Part shown: piece by piece, positions 5,024-14,659 of the stretch | How positions within the stretch are numbered: position 1 is the stretch's first letter | Layout: the number at the start of each line of letters is the position of its first letter | Origin: a virus | Lineage: Duplodnaviria; Heunggongvirae; Uroviricota; Caudoviricetes | DNA length: 18,266 bases | Reading direction: 5' to 3' (one strand) | IMG/VR virus record: IMGVR_UViG_2698536651_000007 | Notes under the pieces: model-generated | The model's database searches: none | Told to the model about the DNA's origin: nothing | Seen by the model: the letters and a program-made list of their open reading frames with translations, nothing else | Program-made: the position numbers and the translations under genes

Positions 5024-5305
5024 TGAGATTGTGGTGCTTTTTGTGGGAGTCATCCACTTACGCACTTTGTTTTGCCATGCCAGCAGTTAGCTTCTGCTGT
5101 AAAACTATTCATGCAGCAAACCTGCACTTCACCACAATGGTTAGCATACTTTTCCTGATTAAGATTTTGCCAAATATGCTAGCCATTGTTTCATGTATTG
5201 GACCTCCTTACTTTTTATTAAAGAGATCCAATATTCACTACTCTGTCCGTATCTCTACTCAGGCATCAGCCTTCTTCGTTATCGTATACAGACGAGCGAT
5301 GAATT

Positions 5306-5521
5306 TTAATCAGTAATGATGACATTTGCTGCTGCAGGACCTTTAGCACCACTCTCTATAGAGAAGGTAACCTTTTGACCTTCAAATAAGGTTCGATAAT
5401 TATCATTCTGAATCGCAGAAAAATGCACAAACACATCTTTACTACCATCAACAGGAGAAATAAAGCCGAAACCTTTATCAGCGTTAAACCATTTTACTAA
5501 ACCAGTCATTTTATTTGACAT
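5306..5521 (-). CDS. cspB: Cold-shock protein CspB-like (71 aa)
   Basis: [71 protein letters not shown]. Confidence 0.9.
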
Positions 5522-5821
5522 TCTACATTCCTTAACTTGAGCCTTTCGGCATAAATGGTTTGCATAACAGAAACGACTTCGTACTTAATTGGAGAGACTC
5601 AAAGAAGGAATAAGTGAATAACACCTGAAATGAGAACTGCTTTAGTAAACTACTTCGTATATCGTCTGTTCTTCAAACCGACGCAATCATTAACGCATAG
5701 TTGAACATATGAAGCAATGTTTATTTTAGACATCCAGCCATCTTCAACCCCATCAAAAAACTATAGCTTTCTTCAGGAACGTGTGTATAGTGCGCCAAGT
5801 TATCAGTATTAAGGAATTTTT

Positions 5822-7221: not shown

Positions 7222-8271
7222 TTACGCCAGTACGCCAATTGTCAGCGCGCGATCGATAAAACGAAATATCAGCTCCAGTTGGGAGCCATACTTATCTTCA
7301 AATGCCACTGTATCCGTATGCAGCTCGTTGTGATGCTTTCTGCACAAAGGCAACACAAAGAGATCATGTGCTTTTGTTCCCATTCCGCCCTGCCCGTGAC
7401 CAATCAGATGATGCGGATCGTCGGCTGGCATACCGCAGCAAGCACACGGCTGTGTCTTAACCCAACGTGTGTATTTCTCCTTAACCCAGCGGCGACGTTT
7501 AGGCAGCTTCATGAAAGATTCCGGAGACTCTGGATCAACGGTGATGCTTACCACCGTCTTTTCCTGTGGTGATTTTTGTTGCTGGTGGGCGTAAGGCAAC
7601 GGTGCAAGATTTTTTGTGCGTTGTTTCAATATGCTGGTGGCGGTCTGCTCTCCCGGTACGATGTCGCTTTCGCGGTACACCGAGCAGATTTTTTCCGCTG
7701 GTAATCCCAGCGAACGACGCGATACAGCCTCAGGTAGTGCATCCACCACCTGATTGCAGACCGCCCACCAGGATAATTCAGCCAAAGATAATTCCCGCTC
7801 CTGCGTACCGCTTATTGCGTGACGGATGACGTCAATCACCCATGCTGTCAGATTTTGTTGAGCAAGCAGCTCCAGTGATTCCGATGTCTGGTCACGCAGT
7901 TGGTTGTCGCAGTGCCAGCACAACACCATTGCGCCGGTACCATAACGGTGAATGACTGTTTCAGTGTGATGGTAATCGCCATTAGGCCACTGGCAGGATG
8001 TAACATGACGTAATAGCCAGTCGGACAATGCGCCAACGCCGCCAGCAGCACGAATCACCCGTTCGTTACTAAAAAACGGCAGCAATGTTTTGTCTTCCGC
8101 CAGCGGCTGGCGAACGGCAGGAACGACTCCGGATGGCAGATTACGCATGCTTTTTGGTTCCGGTTCCACCAGCACTCGAGGATTATGAAATATCTGTATG
8201 GATTCACGGCCCGGCTTAAGGACCACCAGCCCAAGCTCAGGCACCAGAACAGGTCTAAGTAATACCCGCAC
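7222..8271 (-). CDS. ydfU: DUF968-type prophage protein (349 aa) with C-terminal HNH-like Cys/His motif; GTG start
   Basis: GGAGGT SD immediately upstream of the GTG at 8271. C-terminus CACCGMPADDPHHLIGHG…CRKHHNELH. Same position as ydfU in K-12 Qin (recall). Confidence 0.75.
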   Translation of the reverse strand: MRVLLRPVLVPELGLVVLKPGRESIQIFHNPRVLVEPEPKSMRNLPSGVVPAVRQPLAEDKTLLPFFSNERVIRAAGGVGALSDWLLRHVTSCQWPNGDYHHTETVIHRYGTGAMVLCWHCDNQLRDQTSESLELLAQQNLTAWVIDVIRHAISGTQERELSLAELSWWAVCNQVVDALPEAVSRRSLGLPAEKICSVYRESDIVPGEQTATSILKQRTKNLAPLPYAHQQQKSPQEKTVVSITVDPESPESFMKLPKRRRWVKEKYTRWVKTQPCACCGMPADDPHHLIGHGQGGMGTKAHDLFVLPLCRKHHNELHTDTVAFEDKYGSQLELIFRFIDRALTIGVLA

Positions 8272-8272
8272 G

Positions 8273-8551
8273 TTACCTCCAGATCCGTTGCTGGAAAGTG
8301 CGGGACGCACGTGGTGGGCGTTCGGAATAAGGCAGCCTGACAGAGATTATCCAGTGCCGATAGTCGAGACTGAGAGCTTTCTTAACCTCGAACCCGCGCC
8401 TGCGGTAAGAATGAATCAGCCATTCGGCCTGTTCTGCAGTGCATGGAGGGTGCTGGAACCATTCAGACTTGAATGCGTGAGAATACCGCCCGTGCGTGCA
8501 GGCAAGAACGGGCGAATTATCAGAATTGTAATATTTTGCGTTGCGTGCCAT
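8273..8551 (-). CDS. Hypothetical 92-aa protein, translationally coupled to ydfU
   Basis: ATG at 8551 preceded by GGAGAA at 5-nt spacing. Its stop is 1 nt from the ydfU start codon and contains the ydfU SD. Confidence 0.55.
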   Translation of the reverse strand: MARNAKYYNSDNSPVLACTHGRYSHAFKSEWFQHPPCTAEQAEWLIHSYRRRGFEVKKALSLDYRHWIISVRLPYSERPPRASRTFQQRIWR

Positions 8552-8617
8552 CGGTTTTCTCCGGTGGCACGGTGTTACTCAGCGGGAGTTCAGCCCCGCG
8601 CAAGATTGTAGATGAGT

Positions 8618-8869
8618 TTATTCTCCTGAAAAAGCAGAAAAGCCAGCTTTTATTCCGATCTCTTTCAATGCCTGTAATGAAGTGACAAACTCACCTTCGC
8701 GCAAGATAAATCCGTCCGTGACCCGAGCATCCACAAAATTAATTAACGCAGCCCCATTCTTTCGCAAACACATAATGCGGTAATGACTAACAAGATTTCC
8801 ATTTTCAACGCACACAGCATAGAGGCCATCTTCACAAAAAATTTTACGCAGTTCTTCGATGTTCATCAT
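8618..8869 (-). CDS. rem: Rem-like prophage protein (83 aa)
   Basis: MMNIEELRKIFCEDGLYAVCVENGNLVSHYRIMCLRKNGAALINFVDARVTDGFILREGEFVTSLQALKEIGIKAGFSAFSGE, with GGAAGGA SD. Matches K-12 Rem by recall. Confidence 0.8.
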   Translation of the reverse strand: MMNIEELRKIFCEDGLYAVCVENGNLVSHYRIMCLRKNGAALINFVDARVTDGFILREGEFVTSLQALKEIGIKAGFSAFSGE

Positions 8870-8999
8870 CAGAATCCTTCCGGATAATTAGCTCTCCCCT
8901 TTAAGGGACCATCCCTCTTATCCCTGCGCGCTACTTAAGTATTTTTGATTCTATTCCGGCACCGTCCAGAACTTCAAACGCGTTGAAAATAAAAACAAA

Positions 9000-9017
9000 A
9001 ACCCGCCGAAGCGGGTT
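9000..9017 (-). terminator. Intrinsic terminator downstream of hokD on the minus strand (stem cccgc/gcggg, UUCG loop, then UUUUUGUUUUUAUUU)
   Basis: Hairpin aacccgc-cgaa-gcgggtt with a long T-tract on the minus strand. Confidence 0.6.
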
Positions 9018-9085
9018 AAGTGCGGGTGCGTTGAGGATGCCTGCCACATCAGAGGTGGCGAGGGATTTCTCCCCCGCCGGGTCTC

Positions 9086-9241
9086 TTACTCCTCAGGTTC
9101 GTAAGCTGTGAAGACAGCGACCTCCGTCTGGCCGGTTCGGATTCGTACCTCGCAGAGGTCTTTCCTCGTTACCAGTGCCGTCACTATGACGGTTAAACAG
9201 ATGACGATCAGGGCGATTAACATCGCCTTTTGCTGCTTCAT
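9086..9241 (-). CDS. hokD: Hok-family membrane toxin HokD/RelF (51 aa)
   Basis: Reverse-complement translation MKQQKAMLIALIVICLTVIVTALVTRKDLCEVRIRTGQTEVAVFTAYEPEE. Not in the ORF track (under 60 aa); the + strand ORF 9108-9329 is its antisense. Confidence 0.9.
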   Translation of the reverse strand: MKQQKAMLIALIVICLTVIVTALVTRKDLCEVRIRTGQTEVAVFTAYEPEE

Positions 9242-9312
9242 AGCCTGCTTCTCCTGTCAACGCAAAGCAGAAGTGTCACCTTCGGTGCGAAACAGAGATG
9301 TCATGCTTTGGT

Positions 9313-9600
9313 TCAGAGAATGCGTTTGACCGCCTCGCTATATACTTCCGAGCGTTCTCTTTTCCCAACAGAAATCACGAAAACGACAACTTTCTCGTCT
9401 ATAACCTGGTATACAAGGCGATAGCCTGAAGACCGGAGCTTAATCTTGTAACAATCAGGCATACCACGGAGCTTGTTTGCTTCAATCCGGGGTGACTCAA
9501 GTACTTCAACCAGCTTCTTTTTCAACTGTTCACGTACCGTCGAGCCCAGCTTTCGCCATTCCTTTAGTGCCCGCTCGTCAAAATCCAGAAAATACGCCAT
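9313..9600 (-). CDS. relE: RelE mRNA interferase toxin (95 aa)
   Basis: MAYFLDFDERALKEWRKLGSTVREQLKKKLVEVLESPRIEANKLRGMPDCYKIKLRSSGYRLVYQVIDEKVVVFVISVGKRERSEVYSEAVKRIL. Confidence 0.9.
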   Translation of the reverse strand: MAYFLDFDERALKEWRKLGSTVREQLKKKLVEVLESPRIEANKLRGMPDCYKIKLRSSGYRLVYQVIDEKVVVFVISVGKRERSEVYSEAVKRIL

Positions 9601-9839
9601 CAGAGTTCATCCAGCGTCACACGTACTGGCTTAGGATTACGAAGCCGTTCTTTCACTATCTCCACAAGTTCAGCATCTTCATCACTCAGGAGTGTCTGTT
9701 TGAACGGCAAGCGTTCATTGTCAGCGATATACTCGAGCATGAGACGAAGCGCTTCAGAAGGAGTTACACCCATTTTTTCAAGCGCGGCGTAAGAACGCGC
9801 TTTAAGTTCATCGTCAATACGCAGGTTAATGCTACCCAT
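9600..9839 (-). CDS. relB: RelB antitoxin (79 aa, RHH); 1-nt overlap with relE
   Basis: MGSINLRIDDELKARSYAALEKMGVTPSEALRLMLEYIADNERLPFKQTLLSDEDAELVEIVKERLRNPKPVRVTLDEL. Confidence 0.9.
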   Translation of the reverse strand: MGSINLRIDDELKARSYAALEKMGVTPSEALRLMLEYIADNERLPFKQTLLSDEDAELVEIVKERLRNPKPVRVTLDEL

Positions 9840-9852
9840 GTCTTACACCTCT

Positions 9853-9877
9853 TGTAATTACAAATGTCATTACAAGT
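9853..9877 (-). promoter_or_regulatory. relBE promoter/operator (relO) with palindrome ttgtaattacaa and a repeated attacaa motif
   Basis: Palindromic TTGTAA/TTACAA element directly upstream of the relB start, consistent with the known RelB2-RelE operator architecture. Confidence 0.5.
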
Positions 9878-10010
9878 ATCGCACTACAACATGCTTAGGG
9901 CAAGTCACGAAGGAAGTCAGAAAGTAGTCGTAAGAACGGTGATCACTGTCCGCTTTGTGCCAATAGCGGACATTGCTGGCTCATGGTATGTTAGTTTAAG
10001 GAGGCAGGTT

Positions 10011-11033
10011 ATGCCCTGTATTTCGCTGTGGTATAATAGTTGCGCAATTGATACAAGGGAGCGTTACATCGTGAAAATTGTTTTCGAGGTTAATGGAAAG
10101 AAAGTTCCACTAAAATCTTTAAAATACATAAGCAAAAAAGATCAACTCGAAGTAATGAAAAACTGGTTCTTTGAAAACTTTGAAGATCCGGCAAATGCTT
10201 GTCCGTATGAAAGTAGAGAAGGTGGCTATGCTTACATATATGGCGGGCCGTATGATGCGAGCGAAGAACTACAATCCATCTTCGGTCAATATGTTAAATC
10301 TGAGTATATTGAGGAATTAGTAGATGAATTACAAACACAATGTTTTGACTGGTCTGGAAACTCAAATAATATAGATGATTGGTACGATGATGATATCTAC
10401 GACGCTGTAACGTCTTCCGGTAATCCGTATTTAAAATTCATTGATAATATCGATAAAATAAAAAAACTTGCAAAAGATAAAACTGAACAACAGCAAAAAA
10501 ACCACTTGCTTAGTTTGCTCTACACGAATGTTATTACAGCTTTGGAAACGCTTTATGTTGAGCTATTCATTAATTCTATAGAGAAAGATGATGTCTACAT
10601 AGCCAATTGTATAGAAAAAGGTAAGACTGAATTTAAAGTAAGCAAAGATATTGCTGCGTTGCCTTTCAAGGGTGAACCCATCGAGAAAATTAGGGGAGAG
10701 CTAATCAGGTCAATCAAGGAACACTTGATCAGTGCAAGCTGGCATAGCACTAAAAAGGTAATCGACCGCTATGAAGCTACATTCGATATAAAAGTACAAA
10801 AAGACTGTCCGATAGAAGCTATTGAATTGGCAACCCTCAATCGAAATCACTTAGTGCATCGTGGTGGAAAGGATAAAGAAGGGAACCTCGTAGTGATTAC
10901 AGACCAGGATCTTGAAACGCTGATTGAAAATGCATCGAACCTGGCAATTATGCTCTACAACAGTTTAAATGTAGCAACGAATAAAACCACCATTTTGCAA
11001 CCAGATGACAAACCGTTCATTCATGAATTTTAA
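10011..11033 (+). CDS. Hypothetical protein A of the AT-rich two-gene cassette (340 aa from ATG 10011; 320 aa if GTG 10071 is used); HEPN-like RNxxxH motif near the C-terminus
   Basis: ATG 10011 has AAGGAGG at 6-nt spacing; the alternative GTG 10071 has AAGGGAG and the candidate promoter upstream. Motif NRNHLVHRGG at 10839-10868. Visibly AT-rich relative to flanks. No homolog recognised. Confidence 0.7.
   Translation: MPCISLWYNSCAIDTRERYIVKIVFEVNGKKVPLKSLKYISKKDQLEVMKNWFFENFEDPANACPYESREGGYAYIYGGPYDASEELQSIFGQYVKSEYIEELVDELQTQCFDWSGNSNNIDDWYDDDIYDAVTSSGNPYLKFIDNIDKIKKLAKDKTEQQQKNHLLSLLYTNVITALETLYVELFINSIEKDDVYIANCIEKGKTEFKVSKDIAALPFKGEPIEKIRGELIRSIKEHLISASWHSTKKVIDRYEATFDIKVQKDCPIEAIELATLNRNHLVHRGGKDKEGNLVVITDQDLETLIENASNLAIMLYNSLNVATNKTTILQPDDKPFIHEF
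10029..10037 (+). promoter_or_regulatory. Candidate extended -10 element TGgTATAAT for the downstream AT-rich cassette
   Basis: tgGTATAATag at 10029-10039. It would place a transcription start about 10 nt upstream of the AAGGGAG SD that precedes the GTG at 10071. Confidence 0.35.
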
Positions 11034-11048
11034 TAGCGCAGGTCATAC

Positions 11049-12050
11049 ATGGATATTCGCACACGAAAGACAAAATTTTTAGAGTCGTTAGATTCAACTG
11101 AAGTGATACGCAAAGCAGTAAGTCTCGCTATAGATTGCATTATTGATAATCATAATAGTAATGAAGATACCCCCTTAGTTATTACCAGCTATGATGATCT
11201 CTGTAGAATCCAGGTGCTAAATTATGTACAGGAGTTTTGCGAAGCTGCATTCCCTGATATGGATGAATATTACTTTAGTCCTAACATACTTCGCATCAAC
11301 GGCAAGACTAGTGAAGAAGCTTGTATTAACTTAATTAAACTCTTAAGAAGTACAAAAGGCATGCTATTCTGGTCCGATGCCCCATCGTGGTTCGCTAGCC
11401 TCCCCGACGGATTATTCCATGTTGTTAACATTGATCAAAAAATCGTTACTCGCGGCCTTAATAAGAAAAACTCTAAGCCGACAATAATCAATAAAGATTA
11501 CAGTGTAGATACACTACTATCAGAGCTATTTTTGAATGGCGCACACATGGAGCAACCCAACGTACACAACGTTTCTGAGGGAAACATGAAGTTCTATGAT
11601 GAATGCCATGCTGGATTAATCAGACCAATACCCGCTCCAATAGGCGCGTCATACGATGAAGAGATCACAATTAATTCTCCAGATTGGCAAAAGCTCGCGT
11701 GTGTAGCTTTACGCCGCTATCAGTCGAAGGAATGTCATGACGGAATGCAATGGGATACAACCGATCATGGTTGGACTGATGTAATCGCGTATCCATTCGT
11801 CGAAGAAATACAATCAATGGATAATAGTGGTTATCGACAATGTTTAGTTGGGCTGGTCACAATAAACAATTCAAATGCAAATTCTCCGTACCTATCTACC
11901 GTTTGGATACATCCATTTTATCGCAGGAGAGGGTTATTAAGTAAGTTATGGCCAAAATTACAAGAGTTATATGGAAGTAACTTCGAAATTGAGCGACCTA
12001 ATGAAAATATGAAAGCATTTCTGAAAAGTGCGAAACACGCAGATTACTAA
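11049..12050 (+). CDS. Hypothetical protein B of the cassette (333 aa); possible GNAT-like segment near the C-terminus
   Basis: ATG 15 nt after the stop of A, so probably an operon. …STVWIHPFYRRRGLLSKLWPKL… resembles GNAT motif A (tentative). AT-rich. No homolog recognised. Confidence 0.7.
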   Translation: MDIRTRKTKFLESLDSTEVIRKAVSLAIDCIIDNHNSNEDTPLVITSYDDLCRIQVLNYVQEFCEAAFPDMDEYYFSPNILRINGKTSEEACINLIKLLRSTKGMLFWSDAPSWFASLPDGLFHVVNIDQKIVTRGLNKKNSKPTIINKDYSVDTLLSELFLNGAHMEQPNVHNVSEGNMKFYDECHAGLIRPIPAPIGASYDEEITINSPDWQKLACVALRRYQSKECHDGMQWDTTDHGWTDVIAYPFVEEIQSMDNSGYRQCLVGLVTINNSNANSPYLSTVWIHPFYRRRGLLSKLWPKLQELYGSNFEIERPNENMKAFLKSAKHADY

Positions 12051-12329
12051 TTTATGAATCAGTCTGTGGAGTTAGGGTTGGTGTGAACAAGTAGGGTAAG
12101 AGCCTCAACGTGATGCTATGCCGACCTGCTCCCTGAGAATTCACACAGAAGGCTGCTAGCAATGTCTGCAGATCGCTCTTAGCGGACATTAGCATAGGCT
12201 ATTTACCATAACGCCTCATTACGCGCACCGCCCAGACTGACTCAGCGCGTTTCTGGCATATCCCCGGTAAAACAAGTAACAAACCACCCGAAAATGAACA
12301 CCAGAAACGCGACTTAAGAATCTACCCTA

Positions 12330-13720
12330 TGAATGGATATGCACTCAACCGAATCGATCTTGGTTTCAATCTTTTTTATCGGGATCAGGCTTCTTTTTAG
12401 GTAACTTCGGGGGCTTAACTTGCTGATGACTTTGCGTTCGGCGCGTAAGCCAGGGATGGTCAGCTTTAGGTTTAACATAGTATTTTGAGCGTAAATCAAT
12501 ACGGGCATTATCCACTCGTTCATGGACACTCTTTTCATCATCCAGTGGTATAGGCTCCGGGCCATCAACATACTTTTCCCAGCCCAGCGCTTTCCCGTCA
12601 TACAGAACGTTAATTTCACCGTCAAAGTTCTCGCATACAGTAACAACCGAATGCCTAAGTCGATATCCCCGGCCCTCACTGCGTACCTGAAACGCACTGC
12701 TTTTGTACTGGAAAGTGAGATTTTTAGACAGAACGCGCTTCGCCTGTAGGCTGAAGATATAACCCAGTTCCTCTTCAGAATGGTGCACATCAAGATGAGC
12801 ATTATCAGTAGTACGAGGCGACGTAGCGAACCGGTTGTTATAGGCTTCAATAAAGGTCGGCAACCATGCATTTGCTGTTTCAATATCACTGATATTCTGA
12901 AGCCGCATTTCTTTGACCAGCCTGTCCTGTAGTGTCTGATTGGCGCGCTCTACCCGCCCTTTTGCCTGCGGGCTGTTGGCATGGATTGGCTCGATGCCCA
13001 GTGTCTTTATCGCACGAGTGAACTGGGTCAGCTCACCTTCCCGCTCTGGGTTATTTACCCTGAATATACTGTGTCTATCAGAGTAGAGAGCGAGCGGTAC
13101 GCCATGATCATTAAGGTAACCCCGGAGGGTTTCCATGTAAGCCCGGGTTGTTTCAGCAGGCACAAAACGCAACGCCATCAACGCACTGGTGGCATCATCA
13201 ATGAAAACGATCAGTGTACATCTGGGGCCTCGATTTTCAAACCAGTCATGAGGTGAGCCATCAATCTGGATCAGTTCACCGTAAGATGGTCGTCGCATGC
13301 GGCGTTGATATATACGGGCAATTTTACGACGGCGTTCACGCCATAACCCCTCTTCTATCATCCACTTTCTGAGAGTTTCAACGGATAAAGATAAACCGTG
13401 TATCTCGCGCAATTTTTCGCACGCAAACGTAGGTCCAAAATCAGCGTAACGGCCTTTGAGGAGTGAAATTACTGTTGCTCTGAATTCAGTAGAAAAGGAA
13501 TTATTAGGACGCTTTCCACGTCGGTGGGAAACCAGACCAGAAGGCCCTTCATTTCTATACCGTTGCACCAGACGTTTAACCTGCCGAATAGAAATGCCAA
13601 TGCGTGCCGCAGCTTGTTCCTGAATAATCTGAAGTCGGTGGAGTTCCTTATGACTCATCGTAACAGTCTCTTTGATCATGAAAAATCCCCCAGAGAATTG
13701 TCTGGGGACATTTTAGAATG
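12330..13720 (-). mobile_element. Insertion sequence carrying the DDE transposase; termini not resolved, so coordinates are a minimum approximate extent
   Basis: Transposase gene present; no convincing terminal inverted repeats or target-site duplication could be identified by eye. Confidence 0.35.
12366..13679 (-). CDS. DDE (rve/integrase-core) transposase with N-terminal HTH; IS481/ISNCY-like
   Basis: 437 aa. HTH-like N-terminus (ARIGISIRQVKRLVQRY), DDE candidates (…IQIDGSPHDW…, …IVFIDDATS…, …KGRVERANQTLQ…), basic C-terminal tail. GGGGGA SD before the ATG at 13679. Confidence 0.8.
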   Translation of the reverse strand: MIKETVTMSHKELHRLQIIQEQAAARIGISIRQVKRLVQRYRNEGPSGLVSHRRGKRPNNSFSTEFRATVISLLKGRYADFGPTFACEKLREIHGLSLSVETLRKWMIEEGLWRERRRKIARIYQRRMRRPSYGELIQIDGSPHDWFENRGPRCTLIVFIDDATSALMALRFVPAETTRAYMETLRGYLNDHGVPLALYSDRHSIFRVNNPEREGELTQFTRAIKTLGIEPIHANSPQAKGRVERANQTLQDRLVKEMRLQNISDIETANAWLPTFIEAYNNRFATSPRTTDNAHLDVHHSEEELGYIFSLQAKRVLSKNLTFQYKSSAFQVRSEGRGYRLRHSVVTVCENFDGEINVLYDGKALGWEKYVDGPEPIPLDDEKSVHERVDNARIDLRSKYYVKPKADHPWLTRRTQSHQQVKPPKLPKKKPDPDKKD

Positions 13721-14013
13721 GTTCAAAGGGGACATTACAGCTTGGTGTTAACAATAGCCTGCTTCTCCGTGCCTTTCGGCACGTAAGAGGCTAACCTACA
13801 TGTGTCTAGCATGAAATTGGCCTCAGATTAATGTTAAGCGTCTTGCAGGACGCGTAATGTTAACTGGGGCTTTTCTCTATCTGCCGTTGGTGTCCATGCC
13901 CGAGGCAGATAGCCTCAAGCACCCGCAGTCATTCTACTTAACTAAGATTTCCCCGCAAACCGTTTTTGTCCAGCACAGTAAATATCCAACTAAACCAATG
14001 GAGTTCGCTGTAT

Positions 14014-14193: not shown

Positions 14194-14659
14194 TATTCCT
14201 CCTACAATCAATGTGCAATTACATTTAAACACACCTCAATTTGGCCGGACATATAAATATCTAAACCAGAAAAAATCACTTACATAGCGTTACAAACTCT
14301 TTAGTCTAAAGGTTCATCGTAAAACATTCCCCATACTTATCAGTCCGTTCCGCGCCAGGTAGCTCATTGCCTTATCTGGCAACCTGTAATCAGGTTTCCG
14401 CTTTTTCAGTTGGCTGGTCGTTTAACCGACATAGTTAATCCATTAATCTAGTTGCCGGATGTTGGTGGATTTTCGCGTTTTAGTTGTTCATAAAAGTGCA
14501 CAGCTTTAACCAGTTCTTCTGATGTAACTGGGACTGGTGAGGCAGTGAATAAGGCCTGAATTTGATAGTTCGGCCTGTCGTTACAATCCTCTTTTTTCGG
14601 TACATATTTCCAGTCACCAGACCACTACTTCCCCTGAAAGTCCGTATCCGGAGCTTAAG

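Follow-up and report, generated by a model that had tools for sequence, protein, structure and literature searches.

In a Qin-type lambdoid prophage of Escherichia coli, the small toxin gene hokD, which stands directly behind the type II toxin-antitoxin pair relB-relE, is most probably (at a rough probability of 0.85) the toxin half of a lambdoid-prophage hok/sok locus that was split by a 4.5-kb transposon of the IS1202 family. The prophage is represented here by the virus record IMGVR_UViG_2698536651_000007 (Caudoviricetes), whose 18,266 nucleotides, taken whole, are called the window, and positions refer to it unless another sequence is named. In the mechanism proposed here, an ISEsa1-like element would have inserted at the Shine-Dalgarno (SD) sequence and start codon of hok, duplicating 15 bp of the target (GGAGAAGCAGGCTAT). 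hokD would have retained the SD, the coding sequence, the 3′ fold-back element and the terminator, and the hok promoter, the tac element, the mok start, the Sok target and sok would have been displaced by the insertion to 13754–13924. Left 71 nt behind relE, hokD would be transcribed only as the third gene of the relBEF mRNA, which RelB and RelE autoregulate.

hokD and its upstream region

The three genes are arranged head to tail on the minus strand, relB at 9839–9600, relE at 9600–9313 and hokD at 9241–9086. The first encodes a RelB/DinJ antitoxin of 79 amino acids (aa) (NF008412, 133 bits; annotated as relB in RefSeq), and a RelE/StbE toxin gene adjoins it, that of the 95-aa mRNA interferase RelE (TIGR02385, 54.7 bits), with the relB stop and the relE start overlapping as ATGA and base 9600 common to both open reading frames (ORFs). 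The 51-aa product of hokD, also called relF, belongs to the Hok/Gef family with 82.9 bits against Pfam PF01848 (HOK_GEF), whose cut-off is 22 bits, and its ATG follows the relE stop after a gap of 71 nt (9312–9242). The original prediction, made from the letters alone, had given the same order and coordinates and a gap of about 70 nt, and the ORFs bear it out; the RefSeq annotation at the locus is likewise exactly relB, relE and hokD. The prediction had also remarked that hokD is missing from the list of ORFs, and this would be explained by its 51 aa, fewer than the default 60-aa cut-off of the ORF-listing tool. The plus-strand ORF at 9108–9329, which it had advised not to annotate, has no Pfam family and is unannotated in the three RefSeq E. 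coli chromosome records that span the locus and in the hits of a genome search with 8900–10000. At least 80% of this segment is present in 1162 of 5426 complete E. coli genomes, and K-12 MG1655 has 99.6% nucleotide identity across 8900–9977. As a separate observation on the gene, the TAC codon for Tyr47 of hokD sits in a TACG motif (9100–9103, minus strand), the reported context of A-to-I editing of hokD mRNA that changes Tyr to Cys (PMC5630033; PMC12214031).

Upstream of hokD, neither a hok leader (about 170 nt, with tac, ucb and the Sok target), nor a sok gene whose promoter overlaps the 5′ region of hok, nor a mok frame starting upstream and overlapping hok was found. The Rfam model RF01794 (hok leader/sok), which covers the leader of the hok mRNA between +1 and the AUG of hok and scores 104–115 bits on intact leaders (window 13753–13924, phage mEp460 and phage 933W), has no match in 8900–9700 even at E ≤ 10. 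Homology to intact phage hok loci begins only 13 nt 5′ of the hokD ATG. From the duplication onward, hokD and its 3′ untranslated region (UTR) are identical to the intact mEp460 locus at 278 of 280 positions (99.3%), and the coding sequence, 3′ UTR and terminator are 93–99% identical to those of phage hok loci. The spacer upstream of GGAGAAGCAGGCTATG was also considered as a homologue of the hok leader and rejected, since its forced alignment with an intact leader, a check proposed with the original prediction, gave only 22 identities in 50 positions with 10 gap columns.

The composition of the 71-nt spacer is 32 nt of element-internal sequence, the 26-nt right terminal inverted repeat (IRR) of the transposon and 13 nt of the hok SD region. 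The element-internal part, following the relE stop (9281–9312, minus strand), contains UCUCUGU at 9298–9292, the complement of the IRR tip together with the hok SD, and there is almost no variation in the 60 nt upstream of the IRR among the 100 loci described below. A remnant of the mok frame, recognized from the ORF list and from the 933W mokW annotation and alignment, still overlaps hokD at 9093–9260 on the minus strand; its start codon has been lost, and the ORF opens with TTG at 9260, after a stop. As for sok, the −10, the +1 and the body are replaced at hokD by the IRR, and only the presumed −35, inside the duplication, survives. With no RF01794 match, a spacer made of transposon sequence and a mok frame lacking its start, the claim that hokD lacks a mok/sok control region of its own holds.

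The downstream end of hok is complete. An fbi-like 3′ element of the hok mRNA, CCUCAACGCACCC (9024–9036, minus strand), is complementary to the leader 5′ end GGGUGCUUGAGG, and it and the terminator lie in a 3′ UTR 99% identical to that of intact loci; the usual tac partner of this element is now at about 13924. The intrinsic terminator of the relB-relE-hokD transcript (9000–9017, minus strand) is the sole terminator-like site on this strand in 8900–10000, a scan that found none between relB and hokD, and no promoter-like site was detected near the relE-hokD junction on either strand by a strict scan, which missed the known relBE promoter as well. An isrK-like Rfam match at 8996–9077 (minus strand; 25.1 bits, gathering score 50, E = 0.003) was rejected as chance or a terminator effect; it overlies the hokD 3′ UTR and terminator and is probably driven by the terminator hairpin. 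Just 5′ of relB, a palindrome, CTTGTAATGACATTTGTAATTACAAG (9851–9876, minus strand), was read from the sequence; it is presumed to be the operator/promoter region of relBE, whose function is known from the K-12 literature.

The transposon and the displaced half of the locus

Judged by its sequence, the segment 9255–13753 is an IS1202-family (ISEsa1-like) transposon of about 4.5 kb, in the order left terminal inverted repeat (IRL), transposase, variable cargo, relB-relE and IRR. The IRR GGTGACACTTCTGCTTTGCGTTGACA (9255–9280) and the IRL TGTTAACACCAAGCTGTAATGTCCCC (13728–13753), both on the minus strand, are identical to each other at 19 of 26 positions, their tips both begin with TGT, and their length falls within the 24–29 bp or so of terminal repeats in the IS1202 family. 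They sit exactly where the homology to intact hok loci breaks. Furthermore, they are bracketed by a perfect 15-nt direct repeat: the right copy of the target-site duplication, at 9240–9254 (minus strand), comprises the hokD SD and the first two bases of the ATG, and the left copy lies at 13754–13768 (minus strand). At every locus examined the IRR abuts the target duplication. The transposase gene (12366–13679, minus strand) encodes a 437-aa DDE transposase of the ISNCY/IS1202 type (NF033594, 456 bits, cut-off 250 bits), and its product name at NCBI in plasmid copies is “IS1202-like element ISEsa1 family transposase.” The terminator scan gave a terminator-like hairpin (13687–13708, minus strand) in the stretch separating the IRL from the ATG of the transposase; transcription from the hok promoter would be stopped there before it entered that gene.

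The missing half of the locus is found beyond the transposon. The hok 5′ leader, with tac, the mok start and the Sok target, lies at 13754–13924 on the minus strand (RF01794, 104.1 bits, E = 4e-23) and is 98.4% identical to the leader of mEp460, in which hok follows contiguously. In the window the leader is complete and ends ...GGAGAAGCAGGCTAT, after which comes the transposase gene with no hok coding sequence behind. An orphan sok antisense RNA gene was mapped at 13804–13874 on the plus strand from 933W sokW (64 of 71 positions identical); its promoter region, the 50 nt upstream of the sok start (13754–13803), differs from that of 933W by 1 nt, and gene and promoter are apparently intact. The truncated mok (13735–13812, minus strand), its ATG at 13812 mapped from 933W mokW, has 25 codons, the last ones within the IRL. 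The displaced leader and sok are unannotated in the RefSeq records of the prophage. Phage mEp460 represents the empty site: leader and hok are contiguous in it, and the fragments of the window map to it with a 16-nt overlap (13754–13944 to 2516–2326 of the mEp460 sequence at 98.4%, and 7222–9255 to 4534–2501 at 94.6%).

All the parts of hok/sok of plasmid R1 and of hokW-sokW of 933W/Sp5 are thereby accounted for in the window, the hok coding sequence, 3′ UTR and terminator at hokD, and the leader, mok start and sok further upstream; the difference is that the two halves are 4.5 kb apart. Because of this separation, Sok cannot act on the hokD mRNA and the translational coupling of mok and hok is broken. 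Indeed, the Sok target lies wholly in the displaced leader and the relBEF mRNA shares with it only the 15-mer, so that Sok cannot reach hokD.

The variable cargo, delimited at 9978–12174 (plus strand) by BLAST against the corresponding locus of strain ABW_A32 (L001), contains two plus-strand ORFs, one of about 314 aa from 10089 and one of 333 aa at 11049–12050, for which Pfam and PADLOC gave only sub-threshold matches (HEPN_RES_NTD1, i.e. HEPN/RES N-terminal domain, and GNAT). In its place, K-12-type copies carry ydfV-flxA-ydfW, and a called 389-aa ORF in the window, 9864–11033, borrows the ydfV start. The same 2.9-kb stretch is found on Klebsiella and E. coli plasmids (H84, H85). Imperfect palindromes, TGTCCGC-N11/12-GCGGACA(TT), lie at both cargo borders (9947–9976 and 12155–12190) and form an inverted pair (I1) of 34 nt with 74% identity. 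Their GGACATT core resembles the IRL subterminal repeats GGGGACATT at 13704 and 13728, and the palindromes may be recombination or transposase-binding sites for cargo exchange.

The same element in other Hok-family genes

Besides hokD, at least six Hok-family genes, plasmid-borne and chromosomal, contain the element in the region where translation starts, and many enterobacterial plasmids carry it at 99% identity, or at 92.5% for a variant whose cargo is cytochrome b and a CDF transporter. The junctions at both ends were read for four types of target, and 15-nt duplications matching the respective locus are present in three: Qin hokD, IncI, and IncF (L005/L008/L021). For example, the junctions in the IncI Pnd-like gene read ...GGCAA on the left, TGGAGGGGCTATGAT as the duplication and GCCACAG on the right, and those in the IncF Hok gene ...GGCAA, GGAGAAGAAGGCCAT and GAAACTG. 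The insertion site is shifted by 1 nt in IncI and by about 10 nt in a HokE-like gene of Kluyvera.

A set of 100 IRR-seeded loci was assembled from 19 species-representative genomes, 76 viral contigs, the window and four loci fetched earlier. The relE tail precedes the IRR in all of them, and the right flank is the SD/ATG of a Hok-family gene in about 90%, namely of the HokD type, several IncF types, the Pnd-like type, a Buttiauxella type or the HokE-like Kluyvera gene. Where both ends are present, the element measures 2261–6093 nt and nearly always has a 15-nt duplication. On the left, the flank is the hok leader in 67 of 68 IRL-seeded loci, a scan that gave no cargo-free form of about 1.6 kb. 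Atypical right flanks were seen in L016, L055, L057, L007, L011 and L023: an inverted hok leader in L016, the interior of hokD in L055, which is a deletion into hokD, or non-hok DNA, suggesting secondary inversions or deletions, or rare off-target insertions.

Since the Hok proteins are highly divergent and the elements nearly identical, the copies point to independent oriented insertions into the same functional site, and from such insertions we infer that the IRL-to-IRR unit as a whole is mobile. That several unrelated Hok-family genes contain it, in one and the same orientation, argues that the element either targets the hok translation-initiation region or is very strongly selected there.

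Comparison with described members of the IS1202 family (the ISAjo2/ISAba32 subgroup at XerCD dif sites, and tIS such as ISKpn21) shows the same transposase family, imperfect repeats of about 26 bp starting with TGT and oriented site-specific insertion, and some of those members carry passenger genes (PMC10132070; bioRxiv 10.1101/2022.12.17.520857). The present element differs in its target, the hok SD/start region and not a Xer site; in its duplication, 15 bp in three target sequences compared to 5–6, 16–17 or 27–28 bp in the described subgroups, the nearest being 16–17; and in its larger cargo of 1.7–4.5 kb, always ending with relBE. Type II toxin-antitoxin modules occur as cargo of other transposons as well, such as those of the Tn3 family. 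There, too, the type II pair adjoins the transposon end, plausibly stabilizing the element, whereas the operon here reads on past the IRR into a further toxin gene, unrelated and belonging to the target.

No paper on such targeting of hok, and none linking relBE or hokD with IS1202 or ISNCY, was found in a search that had Pedersen & Gerdes 1999, Ramisetty & Santhosh 2016 and ISfinder outside its reach. It is slightly better than an even chance that a hok-targeting, relBE-bearing transposon is both real and undescribed. We lean to a similar degree toward a broader proposal, in which chromosomal relBE, the paradigm of E. coli, would be the cargo of an IS1202-family transposon that specifically targets the translation-initiation regions of Hok-family genes with a 15-bp duplication, with relBE always reading into hok; Hok would be uncoupled from Sok and mok and brought under a type II promoter, and the end of the element may help to silence it.

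Expression of hokD, rival explanations and implications

The locus is the known relBEF operon of E. coli, and both the co-transcription of its genes and the truncation of hokD by relBE integration have been published. Probes for relB, relE and relF detect one full-length relBEF mRNA, deletion of PrelBEF abolishes the induction of this mRNA, and its relF part accumulates after toxin-induced cleavage (PMC3598666). In another work relE-hokD is entered as “cotranscribed,” with a spacer of 71 bp and no promoter or terminator between (PMC5120126). The co-transcription of hokD with relBE proposed in the original prediction agrees with these reports and with the lack of an intervening terminator- or promoter-like site in the scans above. 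Taken with the layout of the locus, the literature shows that hokD is transcribed from PrelBE within relBEF, without a cognate antisense RNA. A passage of PMC6379469, citing Ramisetty & Santhosh 2016, states that hokD, with 51 codons, is what the integration of relBE from a plasmid left of an ancestral frame about 70 codons long; that frame is mok. According to a passage of PMC12214031, citing Pedersen & Gerdes 1999, insertion elements, or rearrangements in which canonical components were lost, have inactivated every hok locus of K-12 except hokB. Overexpression of the HokD coding sequence is toxic (bioRxiv 10.1101/2025.08.07.668861). The original reading is thus supported but not new, and what it had not seen, besides the earlier publications, is that the control region is still inside the window, 4.5 kb upstream and beyond the transposon. 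The locus being known, the account of its origin is modestly novel.

In K-12, relBEF of the Qin prophage has the same gene order, 71-nt relE-hokD spacer and IRR. It differs by a deletion that took away the hok leader/sok, the IRL and the greater part of the transposase, whereas the window retains the whole element, with other cargo at 9978–12174. What K-12 MG1655 retains is the IRR, relBE, ydfV, flxA and ydfW, the last being the C-terminal remnant of the transposase. The deletion corresponds to 12603–15656 of L001, and the K-12 state is secondary. Probably, this loss of the IRL, transposase and leader is the reason why the older K-12 literature mentions only a rearrangement.

Translation of HokD from the relBEF mRNA would be weak, since the coupling to mok is gone and structure prediction pairs the SD and AUG, partly with the transposon end and the hok 3′ element. 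When 9312–8993 is folded in silico (minimum free energy −118.8 kcal/mol, z = −3.4), pairing with P > 0.9 is predicted for the opening two bases of the SD (G59–G60) and for the AUG region, and, again with P > 0.9, between the IRR tip UGCGUUGA and UCAACGCA (9034–9027) in the fold-back element at the hok 3′ end, where the 5′ tac would ordinarily pair. For other targets the prediction is instead a local hairpin, formed by UCUCUGU (9298–9292) and ACAGGAGA, which consists of the IRR tip and the SD. The end of the element may help to silence hok in this way, by anti-SD pairing and by tac-like pairing with the hok 3′ element. These folds are taken as hypotheses, and an 8-mer match may arise by chance.

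Some observations weigh against the transposon account and its extensions. The flanks are non-hok in about 6–8% of the copies, the left junction of one copy (L006) contains an additional T, and a transposase relative of 80.7% identity (L125) neither lies in a hok locus nor carries relBE at its end, so that targeting cannot be extended past the group of at least 92% identity. The predicted folds differ between targets, and two of the SD bases stay unpaired. The consensus promoter scan missed the relBE, hok and sok promoters, and its silence is weak evidence. Furthermore, in the ISfinder listing ISEsa1 measures 1609 bp and lacks a detectable target duplication (PMC10132070), and either a cargo-free form exists or the right end was set differently. 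No convincing internal IRR was found about 1.6 kb from the IRL in either cargo type; a true right end of ISEsa1 beyond relBE would explain the listing, the ISfinder sequence itself standing outside the comparison.

The split hok/sok locus has to be set against three other explanations. A compact or divergent mok/sok control might be hidden in the 71-nt spacer or in the 5′ coding region of hokD, which would then still be a type I toxin. The duplication does keep the presumed sok −35 (the complement of GAAGCAG) beside hokD, and the Hok coding sequence and 3′ UTR are intact; however, this idea is barely credible in the face of the missing RF01794 match, a spacer of transposon sequence that is invariant across unrelated targets, the replacement of most of sok by the IRR, a mok frame without a start and a plus strand on which the strict scan found no promoter-like site. 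It is also improbable, if less extremely so, that the relBE-hokD junction arose from non-transpositional integration or deletion of a bare relBE cassette and that the nearby transposase is coincidental. Earlier papers do describe integration of a plasmid-acquired minimal relBE module (PMC6379469; PMC5120126), and K-12 itself has neither the IRL nor an intact transposase. But the inverted repeats and the perfect 15-nt duplication bracket the whole IRL-to-IRR unit, this unit has different, locus-matched duplications in other hok genes, and the K-12 state is accounted for by the secondary deletion.

We give equally little weight to a single ancestral insertion into hok, after which the split locus would have spread by homologous recombination or gene conversion without any target preference. 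The hokD type does make up about 70 of the 100 sampled copies, and short conserved motifs around the SD are common to Hok loci. Against this, the duplicated 15-mers differ by locus and agree on either side with the hok sequence of their own locus, the insertion sites in IncI and in the HokE-like gene are shifted, and Hok proteins that diverge strongly stand beside elements of 99% identity.

Elsewhere in the window, two matches to the cspA-type thermoregulator 5′ UTR (RF01766), at 2395–2780 (112.8 bits) and 5290–5682 (158.8 bits), both on the minus strand, belong to the prophage cold-shock genes cspI and cspB. About 3.9 kb of strain ABW_A32 (L001 14699–18634) is missing from the window at about 14644–14646; this stretch carries an IS66 fragment, dicC, dicA, ydfABC, the DicF RNA, dicB and ydfD, and the prophage immunity and division-inhibition region is thus deleted in the window.

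For annotation, hokD should be called and the antisense ORF 9108–9329 should not, and the orphan hok leader/sok at 13754–13924 and the transposon ends merit features. In an undeleted form absent from K-12, the window would show how relBEF arose, by a type II promoter replacing control by an antisense RNA. If the targeting of hok is real and unreported, the ISEsa1 branch of the IS1202 family would gain a defined right end, duplication length and target. On the same condition, relBEF would be a natural example of a toxin taken over by a second toxin-antitoxin system, and a warning that experiments deleting or inducing relBE also alter the expression of hokD.

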